From Nitrosopumilus maritimus SCM1 (GTDB lineage: Archaea; Thermoproteota; Nitrososphaeria; Nitrososphaerales; Nitrosopumilaceae): 32,000 nt of DNA. The notes below the pieces were generated by a model. That model did not search any database. It was not told where the DNA came from and worked only from the letters and a program-made list of their open reading frames with translations. The DNA lies in NCBI RefSeq assembly GCF_000018465.1, contig NC_010085.1:300001-332000 (forward strand). The letters are read 5' to 3'. Positions 9,504 through 28,084 of this stretch are shown here, in pieces; positions within the stretch are counted from its first letter, which is position 1; each line of letters begins with the position of its first letter. The position numbers and the translations under genes were made by a program.

Positions 9504-12500
9504 ATGGCAGATTCATCCACAAAACGTTGGCCAGTAATTCAAGATATTTTGAAAAGAGAGGGTATTGCACGTCAGCACCTAAACTCATTTGATGAATTTT
9601 TAGAAAGAGGATTACAAAGTATTATCAACGAGGTTGGTCAGATCGATATTGAAAATGCTGAGTACCCTTACAAAATTCAACTAGGTAAAGTCAAATTACA
9701 ACAACCAAGAATGATGGAACTTGATGGTTCTATTACTCATATCACTCCTGCAGAAGCTAGATTGAGAAACGTATCTTATTCTGCACCTGTAATGATGGAA
9801 GCAAGTGTTGTTGAAGATGGAAAAATCCTTGAATCAAGATTTGTCCACATTGGTGATGTTCCCGTTATGGCAAAATCAAACGCTTGTATCTTACACAATT
9901 TTTCTACTCAAAAACTAGTTGAACATGGTGAGGATCCAAACGATCCTGGTGGTTACTTTATCATTAATGGTTCTGAGAGAGTAATTGTTGGATTAGAAGA
10001 TCTTTCTTACAACAAAATCATTGTTGATAGAGAAACAGTAGGTGGAAACATTGTACACAAAGCCAAAGTTTATTCTTCAATTGTTGGCTATCGTGCAAAA
10101 TTAGAACTTGTCATGAAAAATGATGGACTAATTGTTGCCAGAATTCCTGGTTCTCCAGTTGATATTCCAGTAGTTACTTTGATGAGAGCTCTAGGTTTAG
10201 AATCTGATAGAGAGATTGCAGCAGCAGTTTCATTGGTAGATGAACTCCAAGATGAACTAGAAGCATCTTTTGAAAAAGCAGGAGATGTTCCAACTGCAAA
10301 AGATGCCATTGTTTACATCAGTAAGAGAATTGCCCCTGGAATGCTTGAAGAATTTCAGATTAAACGTGCTGAGACTTTACTTGATTGGGGTTTGTTGCCT
10401 CACTTGGGCAAACACCCTGAAAATAGAAAAGAAAAAGCGCAATTCTTGGGAGAAGCAGCTTGTAAATTATTAGAACTAAAACTTGACTGGATTAGACCTG
10501 ATGACAAAGACCACTATGGAAACAAAGTCATTAAATTTGCAGGACAGATGCTTGCAGACTTGTTTAGAACTGCATTTAGAAATCTTGTCCGTGATATGAA
10601 ATATCAATTAGAACGTTCTGGACAAAAACGTGGAATTAATGCAGTAGCTGCTGCAATTCGTCCAGGAATTATTACTGATAAACTAAACAACGCAATTGCC
10701 ACTGGAAACTGGGGTCGAGGCAGAGTAGGTGTTACTCAATTACTTGATAGAACAAACTATCTTTCTACAATTAGTCACCTTAGAAGAATTCAGTCTCCAC
10801 TAAGTAGAACTCAGCCAAACTTTGAAGCAAGAGACCTGCATGCAACACACTTTGGAAGAATTTGTCCAAGTGAAACTCCTGAAGGCTCTAACTGTGGTCT
10901 TGTAAAGAATCTTGCATTATCTGGAATAATTTCTGTAAACGTACCATCTGAAGAAATTGTAGAGAAACTCTATGATCTTGGAACTGTCCACTTCTTTGAT
11001 GCAAAAGAAGATTTGAAGAAAGACGGAACTAGAATCTTTGTTGATGGTAGACTAATTGGATATTACAAAGATGGTGAACAACTAGCAGAATCTCTTAGAG
11101 ACTTAAGAAGAAACTCAAAGATTCATCCACATGTTGGTGTATCCTTCCACAAATCTGAAATTGAAGGTTCAACCCGAAGACTTTACGTAAACTGTAATGC
11201 AGGACGTGTTTTAAGACCACTAATCATCATTAAAGATAACAAACCATTACTTACTGCTGATTTACTAGACAAAATTTCAAAGAAACTCATCTCGTGGACT
11301 GATCTCTTGAGAATGGGTGTTTTGGAAATGATTGATGCAAATGAAGAAGAGAACTGTTATGTCACACTAGATGAAAAGGATACAAAGAAACACACTCACC
11401 TTGAAGTCTTCCCACCAGCAATCCTTGGTGCAGGTGCTTCAATCATTCCATATCCTGAACACAACCAATCTCCAAGAAACACATACGAGTCTGCAATGGC
11501 AAAACAGAGTTTAGGATTCTCAACCCCTATGATGAATACAAGTACATATGTTAGACAACACTTTATGCTATATCCTCAGGTTCCAATAGTTAACACAAAA
11601 GCAATGAAACTTTTGGGATTAGAAGATAGACCTGCAGGTCAGAACTGTGTGGTAGCAGTGTTACCATTTGATGGTTACAACATTGAGGATGCCATCGTTC
11701 TTAGTAAAGCATCAGTTGATAGAGGATTAGGAAGAACATTCTTCTTTAGAATCTATGATGCTGAAGCAAAACAATATCCTGGTGGAATGCGTGACGCATT
11801 TGAAATTCCAAATGCTGAAGATAACATCAGAGGTTACAAGGGAGAACGTGCATACAGACTCTTAGAAGAAGATGGTGTTGTTGCAACAGAAGCTCCAGTA
11901 AAAGGTGGAGATATTTTAATTGGAAAAACTAGTCCTCCAAGATTTATGGAAGAATACCGAGAGTTTGAATCATCTGGTCCTTACAGAAGAGATACATCAA
12001 TTGGTGTTAGACCTTCAGAAACTGGTGTTGTTGATACTGTAGTTATGACCCAATCAAATGAAGGTGGAAAGATGTACAAGATTAGAGCAAGAGATATGAG
12101 AATTCCCGAAATTGGTGACAAGTTTGCATCAAGACATGGACAAAAAGGTGTCTTAGGAATTTTAGCTAAAGCAGAAGATTTGCCATATACTGCAAGTGGA
12201 ATGTCTCCTGATGTTTTGATTAATCCTCATGCATTCCCATCTAGAATGACTGTTGGTATGATGATGGAATCCATATGTGGAAAATCTGCCGCATTACGTG
12301 GAAAGAGATTTGATGGTTCTGCATTTGTTGGAGAAAAAATGGATGAAGTAAGAGAAGTAATGGATGCACATGGCTTTGAATATTCTGGTAAAGAAATAAT
12401 GTATGATGGAAGAACTGGAAAATCATTCCCAGTCGAAGTTTTCATCGGAGTTGTATATTATCAAAAATTACACCACATGGTTGCAGACAAGATTCATGCA

Positions 12501-12851
12501 AGAGCACGTGGACAAGTTCAAATGTTAACAAAACAACCAACAGAAGGAAGAGCAAGAGGTGGTGGCCTTAGATTCGGTGAAATGGAGAGAGATTGTCTTA
12601 TTGCTTATGGCGCTTCTATGATTCTTAAAGACAGATTACTTGACGAGTCTGATAAATCTGATATTTTTGTATGTGAGAGGTGTGGTCTTGTTGCTTATCA
12701 TGATGTTAAACAAAGAAAATATGTTTGCAGAGTTTGTGGTGATAAAGCCAAAGTCTCATCAGTTTCAGTTGCTTATGCATTCAAACTACTCTTACAAGAG
12801 ATGCAGAGCCTCAACGTCGCACCAAGATTGTTAATCAAGGAGAAACTATAA
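9504..12851 (+). CDS. rpoB: DNA-directed RNA polymerase subunit B (unsplit)
   Basis: 1115 aa. Conserved GDKFASRHGQKGV and C-terminal zinc ribbon CERCGLVAYHDVKQRKYVCRVCG. One ORF covers both the B'' and B' regions. Confidence 0.97.
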   Translation: MADSSTKRWPVIQDILKREGIARQHLNSFDEFLERGLQSIINEVGQIDIENAEYPYKIQLGKVKLQQPRMMELDGSITHITPAEARLRNVSYSAPVMMEASVVEDGKILESRFVHIGDVPVMAKSNACILHNFSTQKLVEHGEDPNDPGGYFIINGSERVIVGLEDLSYNKIIVDRETVGGNIVHKAKVYSSIVGYRAKLELVMKNDGLIVARIPGSPVDIPVVTLMRALGLESDREIAAAVSLVDELQDELEASFEKAGDVPTAKDAIVYISKRIAPGMLEEFQIKRAETLLDWGLLPHLGKHPENRKEKAQFLGEAACKLLELKLDWIRPDDKDHYGNKVIKFAGQMLADLFRTAFRNLVRDMKYQLERSGQKRGINAVAAAIRPGIITDKLNNAIATGNWGRGRVGVTQLLDRTNYLSTISHLRRIQSPLSRTQPNFEARDLHATHFGRICPSETPEGSNCGLVKNLALSGIISVNVPSEEIVEKLYDLGTVHFFDAKEDLKKDGTRIFVDGRLIGYYKDGEQLAESLRDLRRNSKIHPHVGVSFHKSEIEGSTRRLYVNCNAGRVLRPLIIIKDNKPLLTADLLDKISKKLISWTDLLRMGVLEMIDANEEENCYVTLDEKDTKKHTHLEVFPPAILGAGASIIPYPEHNQSPRNTYESAMAKQSLGFSTPMMNTSTYVRQHFMLYPQVPIVNTKAMKLLGLEDRPAGQNCVVAVLPFDGYNIEDAIVLSKASVDRGLGRTFFFRIYDAEAKQYPGGMRDAFEIPNAEDNIRGYKGERAYRLLEEDGVVATEAPVKGGDILIGKTSPPRFMEEYREFESSGPYRRDTSIGVRPSETGVVDTVVMTQSNEGGKMYKIRARDMRIPEIGDKFASRHGQKGVLGILAKAEDLPYTASGMSPDVLINPHAFPSRMTVGMMMESICGKSAALRGKRFDGSAFVGEKMDEVREVMDAHGFEYSGKEIMYDGRTGKSFPVEVFIGVVYYQKLHHMVADKIHARARGQVQMLTKQPTEGRARGGGLRFGEMERDCLIAYGASMILKDRLLDESDKSDIFVCERCGLVAYHDVKQRKYVCRVCGDKAKVSSVSVAYAFKLLLQEMQSLNVAPRLLIKEKL

Positions 12852-15800
12852 TGTCGATTCAAGCAGTAAAAGCAATTGATGGAATCAGATTCTCTGTTTG
12901 GTCTCCAACTGAAATCAGAAAATACTCTGTTGCAGAAATCACTGCTCCAGAAACTTATGATGAAGATGGAATGCCTGTTCAAGGAGGTTTGATGGATGGC
13001 AGACTTGGAACACTTGAACCTGGACAAAAATGTCTCACTTGTGGAAACACTGCAGCAAGATGTCCTGGACACTTTGGACATTTGGAATTAGCAGAACCAG
13101 TATTACATATTGCATTTATTGATAACATCTACAAATTACTACAATCAACTTGCCGTTCTTGTGCAAGATTAAAAGTTCCACAAGAAGATCTTAATGTTTT
13201 CAAAACTATTAAAGAGAAACACGCAGCTTATACTGTAATTTCTCAAAAACGTATTCCAGAACAAATTATTGAAAAAGCAAAGAAAGCAAAAGAATGTCCT
13301 CACTGTGGTAAAACACAATACGAACTAATCTTTACAAAACCAACTATCTTTGTAGAAAAAACAGAAATTGGAGAGCACAGATTACTCCCAATAACAATCA
13401 GAGAAAGATTCTCACAAATCATTGATGAAGATTTAGAATTATTATCATATGATCCAGTAACTGCAAGACCTGAATGGTTTGTCTTACAAGCATTCCCTGT
13501 TCCCCCAGTAACTGTTAGACCCTCAATCATTCTAGAAACTGGAATTAGATCTGAAGATGATTTGACTCACAAGATGGTAGATATCATCAGAGTTAATCAG
13601 AGATTAAAAGAAAGTAAAGATGCTGGTACCCCTCCACTAATCGTTCAAGACTTGGTCGACCTATTACAATATCACACTACAACATACTTTGATAACGAAG
13701 TATCTGGAATTCCACAAGCTCATCATCGTTCTGGACGTCCTCTCAAAACCTTAACTCAAAGACTCAAAGGAAAAGAAGGAAGATTCAGAGGTTCACTATC
13801 TGGAAAGAGAGTTGACTTTTCTAGTAGAACTGTAATCTCTCCTGATCCTAACTTGGACTTGAGTGAGGTTGGTGTCCCAGAAGCAGTAGCCATGAAACTA
13901 ACCATTCCTGAAATCGTTACAGAATGGAATATTGAAAGAATGAGAAAACTTGTAATTAATGGACCTGAGAAATTCCCAGGCGTAAACTATATCGTCAGAC
14001 CCGATGGTGTAAAGATTAGACTTGATTTCGTAGAGGATCGCTCTACAATTGCTGAAACACTTGAGATTGGTTACTTGGTAGAAAGACATCTTGCAGATGG
14101 TGACATTGTCATGTTCAACAGACAACCATCACTTCACCAAATGTCTATCATGGCGCACTATGTCCGTGTACTCCCAGGAAAAACATTCAGATTACATCCA
14201 TCCGTTTGTCCTCCTTACAACGCAGACTTTGATGGTGATGAAATGAACCTCCACGTTCCTCAAAGTGAGGAAGCAAGAGCAGAAGCAATTCTCTTAATGA
14301 GAGTTCAAGACCAATTAATCTCACCAAGATATGGTGGTCCAATTATTGGTGCACTAAGAGACTTTGTAACTGGTGCATATCTTCTAACTAAAGACGATAC
14401 AGTATTGACTGTTCAAGAATTCTCAAACCTTGCAATGCTTGGTGGTTATACAGATCCTTTACCAAAACCCGGAACCAAAACCAAAGACGGTCCGGCATAC
14501 ACTGGTAAACAACTTTTCTCGTTGTTCTTACCAAAAGACTTCAACTATGTAATTACATCAAAATGGTCAAAGGGAACAAAAGGACAAGCAAAAGATGTTG
14601 TAATTAAAAATGGTGAACTAATCAGCGGTGTCATTGACAAATCTTCAATTGGTGCAGAAGAACCAGAAAGTGTTCTTCACAGAATTGCAAAAGATTACGG
14701 TAATGCAGTTGGAAAAAGTTTCCTCAACTCTATTCTCATTATGGTAAAACAATTCATCACCCACTATGGCTTCAGTTATGGTTATGGTGACCTTATTGTT
14801 CCTGACAAAGACAAACAACAGATTCTTGATGATATTCAAGGAACTTATGATATTGTAAGTGATTTGACTGATCAATACAAGAAAGGAACACTCAAGCTTA
14901 CTAGAGGTATGAAACCTGAAGAAGCCTTAGAGGCATACATTGTAAATGAATTAGGTAAAGCAAGAGACAAGGCAGGCTCTTCTGCAAATGACTGTCTTCC
15001 AGCAGACAATGCAGGAAAAATCATGGCTACAACAGGTGCAAGAGGTTCATCACTTAACGTAGGTCAGATGGCCGGGGCTCTTGGACAACAATCAAGAAGA
15101 GGAAACAGACTCCATGAGGGTTACAACAACAGAGCATTAACTCACTATCAAGAACATGATGATAATCCTGATGCACATGGATTTGTAAAATCCAATTACA
15201 GAGAGGGTCTATCTGCACTTGAATTCTTCTTCCACGCAATGGGAGGTCGTGAAGGACTTGTAGACACTGCAGTTAGAACACAACAAAGTGGTTACATGCA
15301 GCGTAGATTAATCAACGCATTAGAGCACATTAGATTAGAATATGATGGAACAGTAAGAGATCCACACGGCCACATTGTACAATTCCTTTATGGTGAAGAT
15401 GGAATTGATGTGCAAAAGAGTGATCACGGTGAAGCATTTAACCCAAGCAGATTAATTGAATCTCAAAAAATTATTGATTCTGGCAAAAAGGCAACAAAAG
15501 AAGAGATTGAAACACTAGCTAAGAAATACACAAAGACATTCAATCCAAGATTAACTAAACTTGTAACTGATGCATTACAAAATTCTGAATTAAGCAAAGA
15601 TGGTGTTGAAGCAGTATGTAAGAAAGGACTGTTACTTTACAACAAAGCAAAAGTAGAACCAGGACAAGCAGTTGGAATTATCACTGCACAGTCAATCGGT
15701 GAACCTGGTACTCAGATGACATTAAGAACATTCCACTTTGCAGGAATTAAAGAAAGAAACGTAACATTAGGTCTTCCAAGATTAATTGAACTCGTTGATG

Positions 15801-16642
15801 CAAGAAAGAAACCAGTAACACCAACTATGGATATTTATCTTGATGATGAATCAAAGAAATCAAGAGAAAAAGCAATTGAGGTTGCAAGAAATGTTTTGCA
15901 AACCAAAGTTAGCGCCTTGATTGCAGATAGTGAGACTGATTATGCTACTGAAATCAAACTAATTTTGAGTGAAAATAGGCTCAGAGAAAGAGGATGCTCT
16001 ATTGCAGAAGTTGAAGCTGCCTTGTCCTCTAACAAGAAATTCAAGATGGAAACAACTGGCGAACTAATCACCCTAAAACTAGTTGAGGAATCTGATACTG
16101 CTACAGTAATTGCAATCAGAAACAAGGTTCTCAACACCACTGTCAAAGGTGTACCTGACATTGAACGTGTAACCCTTGTCCAAAAAGATGATGAGTGGGT
16201 TATTCAAACAACTGGTTCTAATGTTGCCAAAGTCTTAGAGGTCAAAGGAATTGATAAGAGAAACGTTAGAACAAACAACGTCTTTGAGATTGCCGGAACT
16301 CTTGGAATTGAAGCTGCAAGAAATGCATTAATCAATGAACTTAACAGTACTCTGGAAGACCAAGGACTTGAAGTTGATAATAGATACATCATGTTAGTAG
16401 CTGACTTGATGTGTTCACGCGGTTACATGCAACAAATTGGAAGACATGGAATTGCTGGAACCAAAGATAGTGTCTTAGCAAGAGCTGCATTTGAGATTAC
16501 TGTTCCAACAATTGCACATGCTGCACTTGGTGGAGAAATTGAACAACTCAAAGGTATTACTGAAAACGTAATTGTTGGTAGTAACATTCCAATTGGAAGT
16601 GGTACAGTTGATTTGTACATGCAAGTAAGCAAGAAGAAATAG
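12851..16642 (+). CDS. rpoA: DNA-directed RNA polymerase subunit A, with the A' and A'' parts fused in one ORF
   Basis: 1263 aa. Zinc motif CLTCGNTAARCPGHFGH and catalytic NADFDGDEMN (A' part), then AQSIGEPGTQMTLRTFHFAG (A'' part) in the same frame. The ATG overlaps the rpoB stop (TAATG). Confidence 0.97.
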   Translation: MSIQAVKAIDGIRFSVWSPTEIRKYSVAEITAPETYDEDGMPVQGGLMDGRLGTLEPGQKCLTCGNTAARCPGHFGHLELAEPVLHIAFIDNIYKLLQSTCRSCARLKVPQEDLNVFKTIKEKHAAYTVISQKRIPEQIIEKAKKAKECPHCGKTQYELIFTKPTIFVEKTEIGEHRLLPITIRERFSQIIDEDLELLSYDPVTARPEWFVLQAFPVPPVTVRPSIILETGIRSEDDLTHKMVDIIRVNQRLKESKDAGTPPLIVQDLVDLLQYHTTTYFDNEVSGIPQAHHRSGRPLKTLTQRLKGKEGRFRGSLSGKRVDFSSRTVISPDPNLDLSEVGVPEAVAMKLTIPEIVTEWNIERMRKLVINGPEKFPGVNYIVRPDGVKIRLDFVEDRSTIAETLEIGYLVERHLADGDIVMFNRQPSLHQMSIMAHYVRVLPGKTFRLHPSVCPPYNADFDGDEMNLHVPQSEEARAEAILLMRVQDQLISPRYGGPIIGALRDFVTGAYLLTKDDTVLTVQEFSNLAMLGGYTDPLPKPGTKTKDGPAYTGKQLFSLFLPKDFNYVITSKWSKGTKGQAKDVVIKNGELISGVIDKSSIGAEEPESVLHRIAKDYGNAVGKSFLNSILIMVKQFITHYGFSYGYGDLIVPDKDKQQILDDIQGTYDIVSDLTDQYKKGTLKLTRGMKPEEALEAYIVNELGKARDKAGSSANDCLPADNAGKIMATTGARGSSLNVGQMAGALGQQSRRGNRLHEGYNNRALTHYQEHDDNPDAHGFVKSNYREGLSALEFFFHAMGGREGLVDTAVRTQQSGYMQRRLINALEHIRLEYDGTVRDPHGHIVQFLYGEDGIDVQKSDHGEAFNPSRLIESQKIIDSGKKATKEEIETLAKKYTKTFNPRLTKLVTDALQNSELSKDGVEAVCKKGLLLYNKAKVEPGQAVGIITAQSIGEPGTQMTLRTFHFAGIKERNVTLGLPRLIELVDARKKPVTPTMDIYLDDESKKSREKAIEVARNVLQTKVSALIADSETDYATEIKLILSENRLRERGCSIAEVEAALSSNKKFKMETTGELITLKLVEESDTATVIAIRNKVLNTTVKGVPDIERVTLVQKDDEWVIQTTGSNVAKVLEVKGIDKRNVRTNNVFEIAGTLGIEAARNALINELNSTLEDQGLEVDNRYIMLVADLMCSRGYMQQIGRHGIAGTKDSVLARAAFEITVPTIAHAALGGEIEQLKGITENVIVGSNIPIGSGTVDLYMQVSKKK

Positions 16643-16646
16643 TTGG

Positions 16647-16889
16647 ATGAAAATTATGGCTGATGAAATCTCAACACTAATGACAAACTCCAAAGACAAA
16701 GTTGTATTGCTTCGACTAAGAAATAATAAAACAGTTCAAGGAACTCTCAAAGATTTTGATATTCACATGAATCTTACATTAGAAAACGCTGAGGATGTTT
16801 CTGAAGAAAAACCCAATCCTATAGGCAAAGTCTTGCTTCGTGGCGATAATATTTTAGCAATTTCTCTTCCTGAGGAAGAATCCAACTAA
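16647..16889 (+). CDS. Sm-like (LSm/SmAP) RNA-binding protein
   Basis: 80 aa. Sm1/Sm2-like pattern VVLLRLRNNKTVQGTLKDFDIHMNLTLENAE...VLLRGDNILAIS. An alternative ATG lies at 16656. Confidence 0.8.
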   Translation: MKIMADEISTLMTNSKDKVVLLRLRNNKTVQGTLKDFDIHMNLTLENAEDVSEEKPNPIGKVLLRGDNILAISLPEEESN

Positions 16890-16925
16890 CAAACCATAAA
16901 TCTGAAACCTTCTATATGAAAAGTA

Positions 16926-18104
16926 TTGTTTGATTTTTTATTTTTAATTTTTATTTTGCCATTTGCAACAGCTCAGGAAATTCCTGATTATGACAAACCG
17001 TATGCTCCAATATTCTTTGATAAACCAATTTACTCTTGGACTGATAAAATACAAATCAAAATAATTGCTCCTAGTTGGAACACAGACAAAGACTTGATTG
17101 ATTCAATTGGCGATAACAATGATAATCCCATAAAAATATCAACACGAAGTCACTCGCTAGAACCATACAGACTAACTGAAACAGATGTGTCAAGTGGAAT
17201 ATTTACTGGCGAAATTATCCTAACTGGTTTCTTACATGATGCAGATGGTGATGGTGACTATGACACAACTCCTAGGACTATTGGTACCGGTCCTACTAGC
17301 GGGTTTTTGGAGGTTGAAAGAGATTCAGCAATTACGGTATCTTTTGAGTTTGCTGATGGTGTAGTGCTATCTGAATCTGTACCTGTGTCTTGGAATCTTG
17401 GAACAATAGAATTTGAAAATGATGTTTTCTTTAATGATGAATCTGTTACAGTTAGAATAATTGATCTTGACATGAATCTAAACCCTGAAGCGATTGATCA
17501 TGTTCCTGTAGAAGTTTTTTCAGATTCTGATGTTGGTGGAATTACTGCAAATGCAATAGAAACCTCTGAAAGCTCTGGTTATTTTGTAGCTACAATATCA
17601 CTTACTCAAAACTCTGCATCAAGCGGAAACAGACTCTACGCTGTTCCTGGAGATGAAATTTCTGCTAGATACAGTGATCATACTTTACCAAAGCCCTATT
17701 CTGAATCTGATAATTTGGAAATTCAGGCTCAATCAAGAGTTGAATCATCTGTTCCTTCAACAATGAGATTGGAAAATTCTGAAATTAATATTTCTGATAG
17801 TTTTGGAAATTATCTCACTTCATTTTCTTCTAATCAGCAAATTCAGATTGTCGGAAGTTTATCAAACATGCAAGAATTTGATCAAAAATTCGTTTATCTC
17901 TTTCAAATAAAAAACTCTCAAAACTATATTGAATCCCTCTCTTGGATTCAAGGTCAATTATCATATGGACAAAATCTTGATGTATCTCAATCTTGGATCC
18001 CAAAAAATTCTGGAGACTACTTTGTTGAAACATTTGTTTGGACTTCACTAAAAGATCCAACTGCATTGTCTGATCCACTTACAAGATTAATTTCAGTTGA
18101 ATGA
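16926..18104 (+). CDS. Secreted protein of unknown function (beta-sandwich-like repeats, DxDxDG-type acidic loop)
   Basis: 392 aa. Hydrophobic N-terminus FDFLFLIFILPFATAQE. DADGDGDYD loop. Repeat pattern D.DMN..PE..D.V.V...S......ETS..SG.F......GDEI...Y.D. The only start candidate after the upstream in-frame TGA is TTG 16926, so the start is uncertain. Confidence 0.65.
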   Translation: MFDFLFLIFILPFATAQEIPDYDKPYAPIFFDKPIYSWTDKIQIKIIAPSWNTDKDLIDSIGDNNDNPIKISTRSHSLEPYRLTETDVSSGIFTGEIILTGFLHDADGDGDYDTTPRTIGTGPTSGFLEVERDSAITVSFEFADGVVLSESVPVSWNLGTIEFENDVFFNDESVTVRIIDLDMNLNPEAIDHVPVEVFSDSDVGGITANAIETSESSGYFVATISLTQNSASSGNRLYAVPGDEISARYSDHTLPKPYSESDNLEIQAQSRVESSVPSTMRLENSEINISDSFGNYLTSFSSNQQIQIVGSLSNMQEFDQKFVYLFQIKNSQNYIESLSWIQGQLSYGQNLDVSQSWIPKNSGDYFVETFVWTSLKDPTALSDPLTRLISVE

Positions 18105-18159
18105 AAAAGTATCAATTATACGTGATTATTAAATAGAAAATTATGTGTTTTTTGGTGTA

Positions 18160-19821
18160 ATGCGATTAATCTTAGGAATCACCCTAGTGTTAACAGCTTT
18201 TACACCACTTGCATTCAATGATGTTTTTGCTGATTCATTTAATGTGAGTTTTAATCAGGATAGTTATCAAACTGGTGACACACTAGTAATTTCTGGTCAA
18301 ATAATTGATTTTGGAATGCCTGTCATTGCTATGAGTATATTTGATCCTGATGAAAAAATCCTCACTGCAAATAGTTTAGAACTTTCTTCTGATGGTAGTT
18401 TCTCAAAAACCATTCCTTTAGAGTCTCCATTTTATGAAATGTCTGGAGATTATCTCATAAAATTAGACTATGGACAAGTCACTGAAGAACATAACTTTGT
18501 AATTGGTGACATTATTTCTGAATCTGAAATTGCTCCTCAGGAGGTTGTTGCACTTGAAATTATGTCTCTCTATACTGAAAAAGAGCATTACTTTGATGGT
18601 GATACAGTCAACATTTTTGGAACTGTGTCATCCATAGATTCTCCTACTATTCTCATAGGAGTTCATGATCCATTTGGAACTCCTGCTGGATTTTATTTTG
18701 GAAATATAAACAATAACTTGGAGTTTTCCACAAACTTTCTAATCAAAGATGGAGTGAATTTTAAAGCTGAAGGAACTTACTCGATTAAAGCTCATTATGC
18801 TGAAACTAGTGTAGAATACTTCTTTGAATATTCTGCAGAATCATCTACAGAAACACAAACAACTGAAGACACAACACAAACAACTGAAGACACAACACAA
18901 ACAACTGAAGACACAACACAAACAACTGAAGACACAACACAAACAACTGAAGACACAACACAAACAACTGAAGACACAACACAAACAACTGAAGACACAA
19001 CACAAACAACTGAAGACACAACACAAACAACTGAAGACAATATACCTAGAGAATCTGTTGAAGAAAAAATAGTTTCACAAAATGAAGCAATAACTGAAAC
19101 AATAAATGAAAAAACAGAAACTGAAACAAAAATTATTACAAAAGAAACTCAAACAAAAAATGATTCTGAAAATATTTTAGAAAATGAAGAACATGATAAT
19201 CTTTCTGTAGAAGATATTGAGCTTGGAAAATTATTAAATCAAATTAATCTCGATTGTGATTCTAGCACTTTTGTTGATACTATTTCTTACTATGATGGTA
19301 TGGGTCCTGCACTTTACAGATTATGTCAATTTGATAGTTCTTTGAATTTTTTTAATGAGTCTTTGACTAGTGATCCTGATAATGTTGAAATTCTTGTCAA
19401 TAAAGGGTCTACACTAGGAAAAATTGGATTTGTTTCTGAAGCAATAGCATATTATGATCATGCTATCTCTCTTGATCCCCAATACCTGCCTGCAAAAAAT
19501 AACAAAGCAAATGCCTTGGCTAATCTTGGAAATCTTGATGATGCCATTTTACTCTACAATGAAATCTTAGAGGAAAATACGAATTACTATACTGCAAGAA
19601 CAAATCTCAATACTGCATTATTACTAAAATCTGAAACTTCTGAAACTTCTGATGTGATAAGTACTGTTAAATCTGAAATTGAAACTTCACCTGAAAATAC
19701 TTCACCTGAAAACATTTTCCCTGAAAAAACAATCTCAACAGAAAACAAAAATGAAACACAATCAAACTTTTTTGAAGAATTAACTCGTGTATTTTCATCT
19801 TTGTTTGGTTTTACTGAGTGA
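18160..19821 (+). CDS. Secreted protein: two N-terminal modules like those of the PEFG proteins, a TTEDTTQ repeat linker, and C-terminal TPR repeats
   Basis: The ORF track starts at GTG 18145. ATG 18160 gives the signal peptide MRLILGITLVLTAFTPLAFNDVFA and sits ~25 nt after the TATA-like attattaaatag. TPR-like helices run from ALYRLCQFDSSLNFFNESL to LNTALLL. Confidence 0.8.
   Translation: MRLILGITLVLTAFTPLAFNDVFADSFNVSFNQDSYQTGDTLVISGQIIDFGMPVIAMSIFDPDEKILTANSLELSSDGSFSKTIPLESPFYEMSGDYLIKLDYGQVTEEHNFVIGDIISESEIAPQEVVALEIMSLYTEKEHYFDGDTVNIFGTVSSIDSPTILIGVHDPFGTPAGFYFGNINNNLEFSTNFLIKDGVNFKAEGTYSIKAHYAETSVEYFFEYSAESSTETQTTEDTTQTTEDTTQTTEDTTQTTEDTTQTTEDTTQTTEDTTQTTEDTTQTTEDTTQTTEDNIPRESVEEKIVSQNEAITETINEKTETETKIITKETQTKNDSENILENEEHDNLSVEDIELGKLLNQINLDCDSSTFVDTISYYDGMGPALYRLCQFDSSLNFFNESLTSDPDNVEILVNKGSTLGKIGFVSEAIAYYDHAISLDPQYLPAKNNKANALANLGNLDDAILLYNEILEENTNYYTARTNLNTALLLKSETSETSDVISTVKSEIETSPENTSPENIFPEKTISTENKNETQSNFFEELTRVFSSLFGFTE
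18853..19038. repeat. Perfect 21-bp tandem repeat, ~9 copies (acaacacaaacaactgaagac), in-frame coding for TTEDTTQ
   Basis: aactgaagac recurs at 18861, 18882, ... 19029 with an exact 21-nt period. No substitutions were seen. Confidence 0.95.
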
Positions 19822-19895
19822 TCTTTGTTTTTTGCGTGCGTAATTTTTCCATAAACCTATAAAGCCCTGTTGAGACGATGCTCATAAGGAAAAAC

Positions 19896-20219
19896 ATGAG
19901 TAAGATACTTGAAAAATCTTTGAAGGATGCCCATAAAGAAGGTAAATTAACAATGGGTACTAAACAAGTCTTGAACTCTGTAAAAAATTCCAAGCTAATT
20001 GTATTGTCTCAATCTGTAGAGAAAGAAATGATTGAGCAAATTGAAACAGATGCAAAAAAAGAAAAAATACCTTTAGTGAACTTCCAAGGAACTTCAGTCG
20101 CATTGGGTAGATTGTGTGGCTTACAATTTAGAATTTCAACAATTTCATTCACATCAATTGATGACGCAAACATCAAATCAATTTTAAAAGATACAGAAGC
20201 TGAGGAAAAAAATGATTAG
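19896..20219 (+). CDS. rpl30e: Ribosomal protein eL30 (L7Ae/L30e family)
   Basis: MSKILEKSLKDAHKEGKLTMGTKQVLNSVKNSKLIVLS..., in the conserved position before nusA-rps12-rps7. The TATA-like cctataaag at 19856-19864 favours ATG 19896 over the track's 19878. Confidence 0.8.
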   Translation: MSKILEKSLKDAHKEGKLTMGTKQVLNSVKNSKLIVLSQSVEKEMIEQIETDAKKEKIPLVNFQGTSVALGRLCGLQFRISTISFTSIDDANIKSILKDTEAEEKND

Positions 20220-20270
20220 AACTATTGAAAGTTTAAATGAGACATTTTTTGTTTGGAGACATTAAGAATT

Positions 20271-20735
20271 ATGACACAATCAATCAAACTAACAACGGAT
20301 CAAATGAGAATGATGTCTTTGTTCCAAAATGTTACTGGTGCAACAGCACGTGATTGCGTTGAAGATGAAAAACAAGATAGAGTAATTTTTGTAGTAAATA
20401 CCGGAAAAATGGGACTTGCAATTGGCAAGGGTGGAATGCATATCAAATCATTACAAAACATTGTAAAAAGAAATGTTGAACTAGTCGAATTTGATGAAGA
20501 TCCTGCAAAATTTTTGTCCAATTTGCTTAATTCCAAACTAGTATCTGAAGTAAAAATAAATACACGGGCAGACGGGACAAAACAGGCAATTGTTATGGTA
20601 GACCCAAGAAAGAAAGGTATTGTTGTTGGAAGAGAAGGCAGAAATGCTGAGAAGGCAAGAATGCTTGCAAAACGATATTTTGATATTACTAGTGTCTTGA
20701 TTAACAGTCCTGAAAGACAAACTTTGGAGATGTAG
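20271..20735 (+). CDS. nusA: Archaeal NusA-like transcription factor (two KH domains)
   Basis: Two KH GxxG motifs (AIGKGGMHIKSL and VVGREGRNAEKA). Conserved position before rps12. ATG 20271 is preferred over the track's TTG 20253. Confidence 0.85.
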   Translation: MTQSIKLTTDQMRMMSLFQNVTGATARDCVEDEKQDRVIFVVNTGKMGLAIGKGGMHIKSLQNIVKRNVELVEFDEDPAKFLSNLLNSKLVSEVKINTRADGTKQAIVMVDPRKKGIVVGREGRNAEKARMLAKRYFDITSVLINSPERQTLEM

Positions 20736-20738
20736 AAT

Positions 20739-21176
20739 ATGAGAAAATCACCACTTGGATTATTTGCAGGCAGAGTTCTAACTACTAAAAAGAAAAGACA
20801 GAGATGGGCAATCTCTACTTACAAGAGAAGAGAATTAGGTATTGATAAAAAAGCAGACCCTCTTGGTGGTGCTCCACAAGCAAGAGGCATCGTTTTAGAA
20901 AAAGTTGGTGTTGCAGCAAAACAGCCAAACTCTGCAATTAGAAAATGTGTTCGAGTACAATTAATTAAAAATGGTAAAACAGTTACAGCCTTCTTGCCAA
21001 GAGACGGTGCAATGAACTTTATTGATGAACACGATGAAGTTCACATTCAAGGAATGGGTGCAACTCAAGGTGGTGCAATGGGTGATATTCCTGGTGTTAG
21101 ATTCAAAGTATTCAAAGTAAATGGTACTTCACTTCATGAATTAGTAATCGGAAAGAAGGAGAAACCAAGGAGATAG
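20739..21176 (+). CDS. rps12: Ribosomal protein uS12
   Basis: 145 aa. [20 protein letters not shown] is the uS12 hallmark. Confidence 0.95.
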
Positions 21177-21178
21177 AA

Positions 21179-21778
21179 ATGGCACAAACAAAAAACTTGT
21201 TACTATTTAGAAAATGGGATTTGTCTGACATCGAAGTCAAGGACCCAGGTCTTAAAACTGCAATTTCCCTAAGAAAACAAATCCTACCATACACTTTTGG
21301 TCGTTCTGCACTCAAAAGATTCAACAAGGCAGATGTCAACATTGTTGAGAGATTAATCAACAAGACAATGCACTTTGGTAAAAAATATGCAAAGAACACT
21401 GGTAGAATGACTGGAAAGAAAACCAAAGTTCTCAACACAGTTAGAACAGCATTTACAATTATTGAACTCAAAACTGGTAAAAATCCCGTAGAAGTATTAG
21501 TTAGAGCAGTTGAAAATTCAGCTCCTAATGAAGATACAACTAGAATTGTTTATGGTGGTACTGTTTACCACGTATCAGTTGATGTTGCACCAATTAGAAG
21601 AGTTGACTTGGCTTTGAGATTCATTGCTGATGCAATCAAAGAATCAACATTCTCCAATCCAAAACCAATTGAAGAACACATGGCAGAACAACTAATCTTG
21701 GCTGCAGAAAACGATCCTAATGCTCCTTCTGTAAAGAAGAAGAATGAATTAGAAAGAATCGCACAAGCATCAAGATAG
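21179..21778 (+). CDS. rps7: Ribosomal protein uS7
   Basis: 199 aa. Follows rps12 by 2 nt. uS7-like central region (NKTMHFGKKYAKNTGRMTGKK...VENSAPNEDTTRI). Confidence 0.9.
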   Translation: MAQTKNLLLFRKWDLSDIEVKDPGLKTAISLRKQILPYTFGRSALKRFNKADVNIVERLINKTMHFGKKYAKNTGRMTGKKTKVLNTVRTAFTIIELKTGKNPVEVLVRAVENSAPNEDTTRIVYGGTVYHVSVDVAPIRRVDLALRFIADAIKESTFSNPKPIEEHMAEQLILAAENDPNAPSVKKKNELERIAQASR

Positions 21779-23445: not shown

Positions 23446-24459
23446 TTATGCTTTAGCTACTTTCATCAAATCGGCAATTTTGATATCCATTCCAAACCTG
23501 TCTTCATTCTTTTTCATGTAACGGAAGATTGCAAGAAAGTCTGGCAATGATTTGAAGAAATTGAAGTCTTTCTTGATTTTAGCTCTAACAAAATTAAAGA
23601 CTTTGGCATATACTTTGTAGTGTTCTTCAACTGCTTTTTCATATGCTTTGAAATCATTCATGTTCTTCAGGAATAATTCAACACATTGCATTGATGGAAT
23701 GATTCCTTCACCTAATAATGCATAGACTGTCCCAATTGATTCTCCAACACCAACAACTTTTCCTGAATAGTATGGTTTGCATCTATCAGGAGTTGCAAGT
23801 CTGATTGGTCTTCCTTTTGTTTTGAGAACTTTGCCACCATGTTTTTTCAAAAAGTCATCAGTTGCTTTGATGTGATTTTTATTGTAATCCCCTGCTCCAA
23901 TATGAGCCCATTTTTCTCCTAGAGGGAAATACCAGAAATATCCTGACATTCCAGGAAATGGTTCAATGTAAAAGTCATCATATGGAACTCCATTTTCATA
24001 TTCTACTTTGTATTCGTATGTTGGCAAAAAGAAATCTTCCTTGAGTTTTGGTAAGTACACTCTATGAAATCCAGTACAATCCACTATCATGTCGTACTCT
24101 TTTTCTAATTCTTCAAGTGATGGTGGTTTACCGTAGATAATTTTTGAATCTTTGATAAAATCTTTGATTAAACCAATCTTGTCATATGTACACAATCCAT
24201 GTAATCCAATGTCAAACTTTACATCATTGTTCATCTTAACATGCATATTTTTTCCATCGTGGATTAGAAAGTCGTTAAAATCTCTGCCAGTTTTTTTGCA
24301 GTATTCAGTAAGTATTGGTTTGATTGTACCCCATGCGCAAATAGAATCATGCCTTTCTTTTGGATTTAGTTCATATCCTGTAACGTCATGTTCTGAGTCT
24401 TTGAGCCTGGCCATTAGATAGGAACCTGCTACACCCATTCCCATTACTGCAATCTTCAA
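23446..24459 (-). CDS. FAD/NAD(P)-binding oxidoreductase (geranylgeranyl-reductase-like family)
   Basis: 337 aa. N-terminal Rossmann KIAVMGMGVAGSYLMARL...YE. A TTG start is needed to keep the beta1 strand. Confidence 0.7.
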   Translation of the reverse strand: MKIAVMGMGVAGSYLMARLKDSEHDVTGYELNPKERHDSICAWGTIKPILTEYCKKTGRDFNDFLIHDGKNMHVKMNNDVKFDIGLHGLCTYDKIGLIKDFIKDSKIIYGKPPSLEELEKEYDMIVDCTGFHRVYLPKLKEDFFLPTYEYKVEYENGVPYDDFYIEPFPGMSGYFWYFPLGEKWAHIGAGDYNKNHIKATDDFLKKHGGKVLKTKGRPIRLATPDRCKPYYSGKVVGVGESIGTVYALLGEGIIPSMQCVELFLKNMNDFKAYEKAVEEHYKVYAKVFNFVRAKIKKDFNFFKSLPDFLAIFRYMKKNEDRFGMDIKIADLMKVAKA

Positions 24460-24546
24460 GATATTTTCTGAATCTCTGGGGTGTAATAAATAGACTATCT
24501 GAATTTGTTCAGGTTATTTGCCACTAGTAGAAATTATCAGTACCTG

Positions 24547-24554
24547 TTAAATAT
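24547..24554 (+). promoter_or_regulatory. Candidate TATA box (ttaaatat) upstream of the triple-hairpin element
   Basis: The predicted start site, ~25 nt downstream, falls ~10-15 nt before the first 43-nt unit. AT-rich background makes this weak. Confidence 0.3.
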
Positions 24555-24589
24555 CAAATTCACATAAACTGATTAAGAAAAGACAAGTC

Positions 24590-24718
24590 TGTCGTCTGAA
24601 AACAATCGTTTCAGACCTTAAGATGAAATCACTGTCATCAGAGGACAACCGTTTCTGATCTTAAGTGATAAGAGATGTCATCAAGACACTTTTGGTCTTG
24701 GTCTTAATCTCGATTGTC
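24590..24718 (+). ncRNA. Candidate structured RNA: three tandem 43-nt hairpin modules (either an independent sRNA or a structured leader)
   Basis: Units start at 24590, 24633 and 24676. Each has an 8-bp stem at unit positions 5-12/20-27, a 7-nt loop, a 5' TGTC and a 3' CTTAAG or CTTAAT. Compensatory substitutions occur between units, and the G.U pairs only work on the plus strand. Confidence 0.45.
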
Positions 24719-24759
24719 TTTTCGTTTAATTTATTTTAGATTAATTTTGAATTGATTCT

Positions 24760-25362
24760 ATGGATGTTTTCGAAGCTGTATCAACAAGACGTGCAATCAA
24801 AAAGTTTGATCCAAATCACAAGATGAGTTCTGATGACGTAAAGAAACTCATGGAGCATGTTATACTGTCTCCAACTAGCTACAACCAACAAAACTGGAGA
24901 TTTGTTTATGTTACTGATCAAGACGTCAAAGAGAAAATATCAGAAGCTGCTCGTGGACAAGCACAACCAAAAGACGGTTCTTTGGTTATTGTATTGTGTG
25001 GTGATATGACCGCATGGAAGACTGAACCATTACGTTATTGGAAGAATCATCCAACTGAAAAACAAGAACTAGTAAAAGCTAGTCTTGAAAGAAAATACTC
25101 TACTGACACTCAAGCTCAAAGAGATGAAGCAATTCGTTCATGTGGAATGGCAGCTCAAACTATAATGTTATCTGCTAGAGATATGGGACTTGATTCTTGC
25201 CCAATGGTTGGTTTTGAGTATGATGAACTTGCTAAAGTAATCAATCTGCCAGAAAATCACTTGATTGTAATGATGGTTGTAGTTGGAAAAAGATCTGAAG
25301 ATGCAGCGCAACGTGGAGGCCAGCTACCTTTGAACGAGATTGCATTTGAAAATTCTTTCTAA
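24760..25362 (+). CDS. Nitroreductase family NAD(P)H-flavin oxidoreductase
   Basis: 200 aa. The N-terminus FEAVSTRRAIKKFDP...LSPTSYNQQNWRFVYV is typical of the nitroreductase fold. Confidence 0.85.
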   Translation: MDVFEAVSTRRAIKKFDPNHKMSSDDVKKLMEHVILSPTSYNQQNWRFVYVTDQDVKEKISEAARGQAQPKDGSLVIVLCGDMTAWKTEPLRYWKNHPTEKQELVKASLERKYSTDTQAQRDEAIRSCGMAAQTIMLSARDMGLDSCPMVGFEYDELAKVINLPENHLIVMMVVVGKRSEDAAQRGGQLPLNEIAFENSF

Positions 25363-26497: not shown

Positions 26498-28084
26498 TTA
26501 GTTTGCAGGAACTGCAATACCTCTATCTATCATCTTTAGTGCAGTATCAGCTTTTAGACACATTGCTACACCATTTGATGTTTTCATGACAAGACTGTAT
26601 CCTTCACGACATTCTACCTCTGATGCATCAACACCAGCTGCAATCTGAATTCGTGGAGAAATCCATGCTAGTTGCATGTCTTTTGCCTTTTCAATGAATT
26701 CTTCTCTAAGTTGTTGTTTCTCTTCACTAGTCATCTCTGCTGCTCTTTCACGAAGTTCTGATTTGAAAGCCTTCATCTCTGCAATTCTATCATGAATCAT
26801 AGATTTTCTTTCATCAGAGACACTGTGTTTCATCTTTTTCATGTGTTCTTTGAACTTCATCTTTAATTCAGAATGTTTCTTGTCAAGATCACCATATTTT
26901 TCACGATATTTTTTCTTGATTTCATCCATTCTTTCATCTGAGATGTCATATTTTGTCATGATCATTGCTTTGAGATGTTTAGATTTTTCTGAAAATTTCA
27001 TGTCATGATGTTTTTCCATCATTTTCTCCTTCATGGAATCATGATGTTTCTTTTTGTAGTCTGCTTTTTCTTCAGGAGTCATAGAACACCAATTAGAAAT
27101 TCTATCGAGTTTTACTGCATCTGTAATTTCTGCAGCACGATCTGATTCAGACATTGCACATAGTTTGTCATAATTCATATGATGTTTTTTCTCATGCATT
27201 TTTTCTTTCATGTGTGCTTTGTATGTCTCTAGATTATCTTTGATGAATGTTTTTCGTTCAGCTTCGTCAGCTTCACAATATGTATTCATCTTTGTTTGGT
27301 GCTCTTCGGTTTTGTCATGCTCAGCAATGTATGCCTTTTTGTCTTCATCAGACATTACACAATAATTCTCTAGTTTTTCTCTAAAATCTACTGCATGATC
27401 TCTTTTGTAGTCAGCTGCATATTTTTTGATGGCAGTTTTGATTTCTCCTTTGTAATTTTCCAAAAGATCCTCAACTGCATCTTGTTCTTCATCAGACATT
27501 TCACAATAGTTTGTTAGTCTATCTCTGAATTGCTCAAGTATGGGACGGTCTGCAAATAATTTGCGTTTATCCTCATCGGTAGCTGCACAAAATCTGTCTA
27601 ACAAATCTCCAAGATCATATTCACCATCATGTTCTTTTTCTCCAGGGAAATTCTCTCTGATAAATTCATCAATGGCATCATCTCTTTCATCTTCAGACAT
27701 TTCACAATAATTTGCTAATCTGTCTGCAAACTGTTCAATCCTTGGATGGTCTGCAAAGAACTGACGTTTTTCCTCATCAGTCATCTCACAGAAATGCTCT
27801 AATCTGTCATCAAGATCTGCATGTTTATCGTATCTATCATCGTCATCGTATCTATCATCGTCATCGTATCTATCATCGTCATCGTATCTATCATCGTCAT
27901 CGTATCTATCATCGTCATCGTATCTATCATCGTCATCGTATCTATCATCGTCATCGTATCTATCATCGTCATCGTATCTATCATCATCCATGTCATCATC
28001 TACTTGTGCAAAAGCAGGACCTGCAGATACACCAAGTACCAAAATCATGGATAAAACAACGCTTAGAAGTTGTGTACTATTCAT
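26498..28084 (-). CDS. Secreted, highly acidic repeat protein: RYDDDD x9, then 8 single-Cys helical repeats, His/Met-rich blocks, and a two-Cys C-terminal module
   Basis: 528 aa. Signal peptide MNSTQLLSVVLSMILVLGVSAGPAFA. Repeats are of the form L..YCEMSDEE[KR]. HMKEKMHEKKHHM and KKHHDSMKEKMMEKHHDM blocks are present. I recognise no family. Confidence 0.8.
   Translation of the reverse strand: MNSTQLLSVVLSMILVLGVSAGPAFAQVDDDMDDDRYDDDDRYDDDDRYDDDDRYDDDDRYDDDDRYDDDDRYDDDDRYDDDDRYDKHADLDDRLEHFCEMTDEEKRQFFADHPRIEQFADRLANYCEMSEDERDDAIDEFIRENFPGEKEHDGEYDLGDLLDRFCAATDEDKRKLFADRPILEQFRDRLTNYCEMSDEEQDAVEDLLENYKGEIKTAIKKYAADYKRDHAVDFREKLENYCVMSDEDKKAYIAEHDKTEEHQTKMNTYCEADEAERKTFIKDNLETYKAHMKEKMHEKKHHMNYDKLCAMSESDRAAEITDAVKLDRISNWCSMTPEEKADYKKKHHDSMKEKMMEKHHDMKFSEKSKHLKAMIMTKYDISDERMDEIKKKYREKYGDLDKKHSELKMKFKEHMKKMKHSVSDERKSMIHDRIAEMKAFKSELRERAAEMTSEEKQQLREEFIEKAKDMQLAWISPRIQIAAGVDASEVECREGYSLVMKTSNGVAMCLKADTALKMIDRGIAVPAN
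27826..27987. repeat. Perfect 18-bp tandem repeat, ~9 copies (cgtatctatcatcgtcat on the plus strand), coding for RYDDDD on the minus strand
   Basis: cgtatc recurs at 27829, 27847, ... 27973 with an exact 18-nt period. Confidence 0.95.

Follow-up and report, generated by a model that had tools for sequence, protein, structure and literature searches.

Introduction

Does a row of repeated hairpins lying between two protein genes of an ammonia-oxidizing archaeon constitute a gene in its own right, and if so, what could its product do? The question is raised by a locus of Nitrosopumilus maritimus SCM1 located within a stretch of 32,000 nucleotides (nt) of the genome (contig NC_010085.1, positions 300,001 to 332,000 of the forward strand), hereafter called the window, whose own coordinates are used throughout. 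Between an oxidoreductase gene on the minus strand and a nitroreductase-family gene on the plus strand, three units of 43 nt follow one another. Archaea of the Nitrosopumilus type are among the most abundant microbes of the ocean and drive marine nitrification, and to our knowledge very little has been learned of their non-coding RNAs or of post-transcriptional regulation in them. The comparative analysis presented here indicates that the locus very probably harbors a stand-alone gene, on the plus strand, for a structured non-coding RNA.

Repeat Units and Predicted Fold

A first-pass annotation of the window had described three hairpin units with an exact 43-nt period within the region 24590-24718, each composed of TGTC, a stem, and CTTAAG or CTTAAT. 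Their coordinates (Table 1) and the spacing statistics bear this out. The pattern TGTCRTC-N10-35-YCTTAAK has three matches in the 32-kb window against 0.10 expected, and three or more were found in 0 of 100 shuffles. Among the 13 plus-strand hairpins of the 32 kb with a stem of 8 base pairs (bp) and a 7-nt loop (G.U pairs allowed), three are the units, at exact 43-nt spacing. A chance origin of the three-unit cluster is excluded. The units are only 49-65% identical to one another in pairwise comparison, and are not reported by Tandem Repeats Finder at a minimum score of 30 because they are too diverged. As to the internal structure of the units, the 8-bp stem and 7-nt loop ascribed to each of them have to be modified: for hairpins 1 and 2 the comparison of homologues favors 5 bp, a bulged A, 4 bp, and a tetraloop.

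The plus strand of the region 24560-24735, folded alongside the minus strand for comparison, yields a four-way junction of -51.1 kcal/mol with z = -3.84, against z = -2.33 for the minus strand. In a repeat search, the three hairpins proved to be flanked by a perfect 10-bp inverted repeat, which closes the element into this junction. The closing helix, designated P1, was overlooked in the first-pass annotation, as were the outer stems and the internal loops of the three hairpin modules, H1 to H3. The stems extend below the TGTC motif (GUCU/AGAU in H1, AUCACU/AGUGAU in H2, and GAGAU/AUCUC in H3), so that the GUC of TGTC and the CUUA of CTTAAG form the two sides of an internal loop of 3 × 4 nt. 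According to the predicted fold, the outer stem of each module is separated from its inner stem by an asymmetric internal loop (5'-NUC / 5'-CUUA), and the inner stems of H1 and H2 carry a bulged A. In the window the internal loops are framed by C-G and U-A pairs below and by A-U, U-A, and C-G pairs above, the arms have 17-19 bp in addition to the internal loops, and the linkers located 3' of H1, H2, and H3 are GAA, AA, and GA, respectively.

Homologues, Covariation, and Strand

Homologues were collected with a covariance model, R1, constructed from eight gapless close relatives and a hand-drawn structure, in two sets of loci with flanks of ~1.5-10 kb on each side and ~1 Mb of Nitrosopumilus sequence in all. 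The species set comprises 81 sources, i.e., the window and 80 loci from species-representative genomes fetched by means of the downstream nitroreductase gene, all 80 originating from Nitrosopumilus or related Nitrosopumilaceae. The metagenome set was obtained independently of gene context, with a pattern of two adjacent modules that gave 103 matching stretches, 80 of which were used as loci. R1 matches 47 of the 81 species-set sources, with one full-length copy in each and a constant strand, and confirms 78 of the 80 metagenome loci, again with one copy in each. A covariance-model scan of related genomes had been proposed as a check in the first-pass annotation, and in the homologues that it recovers the hairpins are kept by compensation. 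With the filters switched off, R1 gives a single match in the window, of 200 bits on the plus strand, while the reverse complement reaches 12 bits. No further copies of the module are present in the window or in the 80 species-set loci, and there is one copy per locus, on one strand. The predicted RNA gene is, on this comparative evidence, conserved across the marine ammonia-oxidizing archaea of the genus Nitrosopumilus.

Covariation over the 125 homologues supports every helix. In the species set 94.5% of cells are paired, 32 of the 51 pairs show double changes, and the covariation score is 0.279; the respective values for the metagenome set are 92.3%, 34 of 51, and 0.308, these counts coming partly from alignments fitted to R1, and in neither set did any of 500 shuffles reach the observed value. 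When the partners were slid by 1-3 columns in the species set, at most 46% of cells were paired and the score did not exceed 0.055; the shuffles scored 0.158. Two further results are independent of R1. From an ordinary MAFFT alignment, RNAalifold retrieves the three hairpins, 15 of 31 pairs showing compensatory changes. Of 112 distinct homologues folded singly, 83 have as their minimum-energy structure an outer helix around exactly three hairpins.

P1 covaries between clades (GAAAAGACAA/UUGUCUUUUC, GAAAAGGUGA/UUACCUUUUC, and ACAAGACC/GGUUUUGU), with double changes in 6-9 of its 10 pairs. The outer and upper stems of H2 covary as well, e.g., GC 20 / AU 17 at one pair and AU / UA / GU at another, and its lower inner stem (AUCAG/CUGAU) is nearly invariant. 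H3 is the most variable arm, with double changes in seven of eight inner pairs (e.g., CG 22 / GC 11 / UA 6). The deviating CTTAAT of unit 3 is a compensated swap of C-G to A-U in the adjacent pair of the outer stem (CG 30 / AU 14).

The wobble pairs fix the strand. Across the structure there are 191 G.U or U.G cells versus 23 A.C or C.A cells, an excess that identifies the RNA read from the plus strand as the functional one. In 98 of 112 homologues the plus-strand fold is the more stable of the two, and on the minus strand of the window only one of the three units still forms a hairpin, in agreement with the G.U-based strand argument of the first-pass annotation. Its prediction of a structured plus-strand transcript is likewise borne out by the covariation and the wobble counts, which point to a plus-strand RNA with a conserved fold.

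Conservation is unevenly distributed within the structure. Among the unpaired positions, those conserved in at least 97% of 114 distinct sequences placed on the model are only the xUC and (C)UUA bases of the internal loops, in all three modules. The pairs framing these loops, CU/AG below and RUC/GAY above, are nearly invariant, and at the apex of H1 the sequence itself (AAACAAUCGUUU) is retained across clades. Outer and upper stems vary, as do the linkers and the apical loops of H2 and H3.

Promoter, Terminator, and Independence from the Downstream Gene

The putative TATA box of the RNA gene is conserved at T2, A3, A4, A5, and A7 in all 47 aligned loci; a variable stretch of ~22 nt separates it from P1, where conservation sets in again. 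In one pelagic clade GTTATATACC takes the place of this box at an equal distance from P1. In archaea the TATA box usually lies about 26 or 27 nt upstream of the transcription start (-26/-27), from which we infer a start at ~24575-24577, on G24577 or immediately upstream of it. The U-runs after P1 are the probable site of termination, oligo-T tracts being known to terminate archaeal transcription. T-runs directly follow P1 in every clade, in others than that of the window as T7-T9 (CTTCTTTTTTT, GGTTTTGTTTTTT), whichever gene comes next.

A different possibility, also mentioned in the first-pass annotation, is that the element is a long structured 5' leader, i.e., a cis-regulator, of the nitroreductase mRNA, upstream of which it directly lies on the same strand in the window. 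However, of the 78 metagenome copies only 37 are followed by the nitroreductase gene, and the downstream flanks of many others are short; about half of the copies with an adequate downstream flank carry other genes, and in several clades these encode a small membrane protein or are unrelated, sometimes convergent, genes. U-runs and a separate TATA-like box are situated between the RNA and the nitroreductase ATG, with the RNA terminator and the nitroreductase promoter overlapping at 24719-24738 in the window, and nitroreductase loci devoid of the RNA gene still have, ~20-35 nt upstream of the start codon, a TATA-like box of the CAATTAAATT type. The separate TATA-like box noted in the first-pass annotation is therefore present with or without the RNA gene. 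A cis-acting leader or riboswitch would be expected, together with an expression platform, in the 5' untranslated region of functionally coherent genes, whereas the genes downstream of this RNA differ between clades, and the leader interpretation is rejected as scarcely credible. The variable downstream gene argues instead for a stand-alone small RNA (sRNA). A stand-alone sRNA of ~140 nt with its own TATA box and T-run had been favored in the first-pass annotation, and the present data support it with a predicted length of ~150 nt. As would be expected of such an archaeal gene, the locus has its own candidate TATA box at the proper distance, an oligo-T tract after P1, and variable flanking genes. 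A small open reading frame (ORF) of 11 codons starting with the ATG at 24623 was discarded as a candidate for lack of conservation: in other clades the corresponding sequence is AAGACAAAUCG and lacks an ATG here.

Table 1. Features of the locus and of related loci; positions refer to the window unless a contig is named.
Feature	Position	Strand	Sequence or remark
Oxidoreductase gene	23446..24459	-	NAD(P)/FAD-dependent, 337 amino acids; divergent; distantly related to the geranylgeranyl-reductase superfamily; own TATA box at ~24484-24493
Conserved motif	24522..24533	unassigned	CACTAGTAGAAA; between the two divergent TATA boxes (oxidoreductase, RNA gene)
TATA box of the RNA gene (putative)	24547..24554	+	TTAAATAT; first base 30 nt before the first base of P1
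Predicted RNA	24577..24727	+	~147-151 nt; P1 and three hairpin modules; 3' end probably in the U-runs 24719-24737
P1, 5' strand	24577..24586	+	GAAAAGACAA; pairs with 24714-24723; perfect 10-bp inverted repeat
P1, 3' strand	24714..24723	+	UUGUCUUUUC in the RNA; TTGTCTTTTC in the inverted-repeat search of the DNA
Hairpin module H1	24587..24624	+	outer stem 24587-90 / 24621-24; internal loop GUC 24591-93 / CUUA 24617-20
H1, upper part			inner stem 24594-98 / 24612-16; bulged A 24599; upper stem 24600-03 / 24608-11; loop AAUC
Hairpin module H2	24628..24669	+	outer stem 24628-33 / 24664-69; internal loop GUC 24634-36 / CUUA 24660-63
H2, upper part			inner stem AUCAG/CUGAU 24637-41 / 24655-59; bulged A 24642; upper stem 24643-46 / 24651-54; loop AACC
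Hairpin module H3	24672..24711	+	outer stem 24672-76 / 24707-11; internal loop GUC 24677-79 / CUUA 24703-06
H3, upper part			inner stem 24680-87 / 24695-702; loop ACUUUUG
Unit 1	24590	+	TGTC-GTCTGAAA-ACAATCG-TTTCAGAC-CTTAAG
Unit 2	24633	+	TGTC-ATCAGAGG-ACAACCG-TTTCTGAT-CTTAAG
Unit 3	24676	+	TGTC-ATCAAGAC-ACTTTTG-GTCTTGGT-CTTAAT
U-runs (UUUU, UUU, UUU, UUUU)	24719..24737	+	at and after the end of P1; likely archaeal oligo-U terminator; overlap the nitroreductase promoter
TATA-like box of the nitroreductase gene	24725..24738	+	TTTAATTTATTTTA; ~25-30 nt before the ATG at 24760
Nitroreductase-family gene	24760..25362	+	Pfam PF00881; downstream neighbor in the window, not a constant partner
Conserved block of RNA-less nitroreductase loci	~40-110 nt upstream of the nitroreductase start		L023-L025, L031, L034, L035, L040, L042, L049, L051, L053, L055, L058, L059, L063, L074
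Contexts of the gene in the pelagic clade	L187:1786-3299, L155:171-2180 (oriented coordinates)		also L138, L182, L160, L196, L203, L195, L152, L134

Comparison with Known RNA Families

None of the 4227 families of Rfam 15 matches the 32-kb window at its gathering threshold. With the E-value limit set at 10, the only matches (C/D-box, Lnt, and rli43) have E values of at least 2, which is chance level; the best of these sub-threshold matches score 10-19 bits against thresholds of 37-100. The first-pass annotation had recognized no known RNA family at the locus, and the Rfam/Infernal search agrees with it. No description of this RNA was found in the open-access literature. The RNA can best be described as the representative of a new family of structured sRNAs of Nitrosopumilus, apparently undescribed so far.

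The closest system in logic are the sponge sRNAs of the CsrB/RsmZ type, and the closest in outline are the archaeal multi-hairpin H/ACA RNAs. CsrB, RsmY, and RsmZ are also stand-alone, with their own promoter and terminator, stems of varying sequence, and one short motif per module, and the logic suggested for the present RNA is the same. In those RNAs, however, the motif is a GGA in the apical loops, multiple copies of which are characteristic of the group, whereas here the apical loops are variable with no conserved GGA, and the repeated motif is the asymmetric internal loop NUC/CUUA. There are exactly three modules together with a terminal helix, the host is an archaeon, and no CsrA-type partner is known, none having been looked for. 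The archaeal H/ACA guide sRNAs, with one to three hairpins (e.g., Pyrococcus Pf7), are similar in size, have their lower and upper stems separated by an internal loop, and share the idea of the same protein set on each hairpin. Their pseudouridylation pocket is large and varies as the guide, whereas the loop described here has 3 × 4 nt and is invariant, and a closing helix joins the ends. No ACA (ANA) box follows the hairpins; an ACA overlaps the end of the H1 stem in some clades and is not conserved. Nor is there a K-turn or K-loop, tandem G.A pairs being absent and a single bulged A being all that is present. C/D box RNAs do not fit either: the plus strand has no UGAUGA, and the CUGAUGA of the minus strand, a strand excluded by the wobble counts, is the complement of H2, with a box spacing of ~20 nt where guides of ~12 nt between the C (RUGAUGA) and D (CUGA) boxes would be expected.

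Cloverleaf RNAs such as tRNA resemble the element in having a terminal helix and three arms, in the compact gene with its own promoter and oligo-T stop, and in the integrase genes that adjoin it in two contigs. The present RNA is about twice as large, its arms of 17-19 bp contain internal loops, it has no tRNA features, and no att duplication was shown; a scan of the window for tRNA and tmRNA genes with ARAGORN found none. Other look-alikes were also discarded. The minus strand carries a C-box or hammerhead-core resemblance (CUGAUGA, with the loop complements UAA/GAC), which was rejected in view of the excess of G.U over A.C cells, the weaker minus-strand fold, and the lack of helix II and GAAA. 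Inspection of the internal loop as a K-turn, bulge-helix-bulge, sarcin-ricin, or 11-nt receptor motif showed that the sequences do not fit.

ToxI antitoxin RNAs likewise consist of tandem units of ~36-43 nt upstream of a protein gene with a terminator in between, which brings up the explanation that the RNA is a precursor from which cleavage at the repeated loops releases three ~40-nt hairpin RNAs, as with ToxI RNA or a CRISPR RNA precursor (pre-crRNA). The modules are indeed tandem, with a period of ~41-44 nt and an identical motif at the base of each, and the junctions of H2 and H3 nearly duplicate each other in some species, with CTTAAGCGAAGAGCTATCATC occurring twice in one locus (L010). 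Against this, the covarying closing helix joins the ends, an argument for the whole molecule as the functional unit. ToxI systems have near-identical repeats and a ToxN-type gene, whereas these units, at their low identity, are diverged and keep their structure, the downstream gene is a nitroreductase or an unrelated one, and no gene for a toxin or endoribonuclease, a Cas6-like protein, or another nuclease is linked. Processing into separate hairpins is accordingly regarded as highly unlikely.

Possible Function

The pattern of conservation suggests what the RNA might do. The stems vary by compensation, and the loops with their framing pairs are nearly invariant, which argues that the loops are the working parts. 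The gene would be transcribed from its own archaeal promoter at 24547-54, starting at about G24577 and ending in the U-runs after P1; the covariation shows an RNA in which P1 joins the 5' and 3' ends and three homologous modules radiate from the four-way junction. The internal loops would then provide three equivalent docking sites for one RNA-binding protein, bound as three copies or as a trimer, and the RNA would serve as a scaffold of a ribonucleoprotein or as a decoy titrating the bound protein; the apical part of H1 may give a second, distinct contact. This reading is preferred because an invariant sequence in and around a small asymmetric loop, recurring on freely varying stems, is typical of sequence- and shape-specific recognition by a protein and because each of its rivals faces an obstacle. 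By itself, the role of protein scaffold or decoy falls somewhat short of an even chance on the sequence evidence; the full proposal, in which a stand-alone structured non-coding RNA acts as such a scaffold or decoy, is judged evenly balanced.

Several observations weigh against the proposal. As mentioned, part of the covariation evidence is not independent of R1, and P1 is reduced to 5 bp (AAGAA/UUCUU) in one pelagic clade. With R1 run without filters, no such RNA was found near ten distant oxidoreductase orthologues (73-83% identity, 58-62% GC), including that of Cenarchaeum symbiosum A, so that the RNA is not universal in the family; as far as seen, the RNA family appears to be confined to low-GC genomes of the Nitrosopumilus type. 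No gene for an RNA-binding protein is consistently adjacent, the constant neighbor being a flavoenzyme gene. Finally, the invariance of the loops would be explained equally well by tertiary contacts, by the binding of a ligand or metal, or by cleavage.

The last point leads to the explanation that the loops act without a protein, by binding a small ligand or metal, by docking among themselves or with further RNA copies, or as a catalytic site. Their invariance, asymmetry, invariant closing pairs, and presence in three copies would suit it. Tandem similar bulged stems occur in some riboswitches, e.g., NAD+-I, and with both neighboring genes encoding flavoenzymes this may be taken to favor a ligand. 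On the other hand, the RNA lies outside a 5' untranslated region and its downstream gene is variable, and it has no resemblance to any Rfam riboswitch or ribozyme. A "kissing" dimer through the self-complementary CUUAAG was considered and rejected, as the final G of this motif covaries with the outer stem. Protein-free action of the loops is, on balance, unlikely.

A trans-acting base-pairing sRNA, with AAACAAUCGUUU of the H1 apical part or the A-rich linkers as the seed and the other arms serving for stability only, would agree with the layout of a stand-alone sRNA gene and with the fact that the H1 apical part is kept in sequence beyond what structure demands. The best-conserved unpaired bases are, however, those of three short internal loops of 2-4 nt per side, which do not form a contiguous seed, and most of AAACAAUCGUUU is paired inside H1. 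Antisense pairing to the 5' regions of the two neighboring mRNAs was tried and rejected, no conserved signal having been obtained (mean z of -0.1 and -0.4, at inconsistent positions). Base pairing in trans is thus considered unlikely, though worth keeping in mind.

Should the scaffold or titrator reading prove true, the internal-loop motif repeated three-fold would be one not described before. An RNA with strong covariation, a defined promoter and terminator, and one small loop present three times offers a handle for the search for its partner, for metatranscriptome studies, and for structural work.

Variable Contexts and Possible Mobility

Twelve metagenome contigs of one pelagic clade contain the RNA gene together with ~70-95 nt of upstream sequence, including the palindrome CTCATCTAGATGAG, in at least five different flanking contexts, from which the oxidoreductase gene is absent (Table 1). 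In two of these contigs a tyrosine integrase gene (PF00589) is located directly beside the RNA gene, the two integrases sharing 39.5% identity. A number of short contigs end within the promoter block of the gene; assemblers break contigs at repeats. The contexts found in this clade may reflect an integration target, as for tRNA genes, or a second, mobile copy. Partial att-like duplicates of the RNA gene of at least 15 nt were not found in the 125 loci, whose flanks are short.

These contexts, together with the invariant blocks CTGTCATC and GATCTTAAG that can be read as DNA, would be in keeping with an element acting at the DNA level, either an array of protein-binding sites between divergent promoters or a small repeat that is mobile or serves as an attachment site. 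Yet the compensatory changes keep the pairing, and the excess of G.U over A.C cells reflects selection on one RNA strand. A dispersed element like a miniature inverted-repeat transposable element (MITE) or a repetitive extragenic palindromic (REP) sequence would be present in many copies per genome on both strands, be bounded by terminal inverted repeats, and show no strand-specific RNA signature; this element occurs once per locus, its strand bias is complete, and the available flanks contain neither terminal inverted repeats nor att-like duplications. The MITE- or REP-like nature named in the first-pass annotation as a possible refutation therefore does not apply overall, with the caveat that the one pelagic clade has the gene in several contexts. 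On viral contigs the module pattern has 47 exact matches, none of them a covariance-model match; lacking such support, they are put down to chance, and 0 of the 47 are real homologues. An integration target is moreover compatible with an RNA gene, as known for tRNA genes. A purely DNA-level role seems very remote.

The preferred reading of a protein scaffold or decoy can be extended to cover these contexts, the RNA being the subunit of a new ribonucleoprotein, or a protein titrator, specific to marine ammonia-oxidizing archaea, and its gene a landing site or passenger of integrase elements. This combined proposal is put forward as a tentative one. Genome plasticity in these organisms would have a hotspot at this gene if integrative elements also target it or carry it along.

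Neighboring Genes and Other Intergenic Elements

The oxidoreductase gene is the conserved neighbor of the RNA gene, being present upstream (82-99% identity) in nearly all metagenome contigs with at least ~1.2 kb of flank. The first-pass annotation had associated the element with the nitroreductase gene, and in this respect has to be corrected in favor of the divergent FAD-dependent oxidoreductase gene. The motif located between the two divergent TATA boxes recurs as [CT]A[CAT]TAGTAG[GA]AA at the same position in most clades, the "group B" copies having the palindrome CTCATCTAGATGAG instead. CACTAGTAGAAA may be a candidate regulator-binding site, perhaps shared by both promoters.

Upstream of the RNA locus the window contains a block of core genes (9504-21778) encompassing rpoB, rpoA, an unannotated ORF of 392 amino acids, and the genes of a TPR protein, an L7Ae/L30e-family protein, NusA-KH, S12, and S7. 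The RNA gene is located at the edge of this conserved block, beside a variable region. In other lineages (L233, L239) the oxidoreductase gene directly adjoins the L7Ae-NusA-S12-S7 genes.

Nitroreductase loci without the RNA carry a different conserved intergenic block (…TATATGAGCCGAAGGTTATCYTGTAATA…GATCGATCATTT…) between a divergent upstream gene and the nitroreductase promoter; this block may represent a further conserved non-coding element or else a promoter or operator region. In a high-GC lineage, the intergenic region preceding the oxidoreductase orthologue (L232:2144-2500) has two near-identical GC-rich copies of ~85 nt followed by a T-run. They contain …cttacg.cc..cgtgatc.gggcgcggg.tcggggggcggcttgttgcagctgggcgcggttccggttcgggcgcaagtct… and are not recognized by R1; they may constitute a structured or repeated element of separate origin that occupies the corresponding place.

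It is also worth mentioning that the window contains two perfect tandem repeats within protein genes. The first, at 18852-19039, comprises 9.0 copies of a 21-nt unit (AACACAAACAACTGAAGACAC, 100% identity) in a TPR-containing ORF of 558 amino acids (18145-19821), where it forms an in-frame heptapeptide repeat with undiverged copies. The second, at 27827-27985, comprises 8.8 copies of an 18-nt unit and encodes (DDRYDD)n near the N-terminus of the product of a minus-strand ORF (26498-28084), a highly charged protein of 528 amino acids with a signal peptide and no Pfam match.

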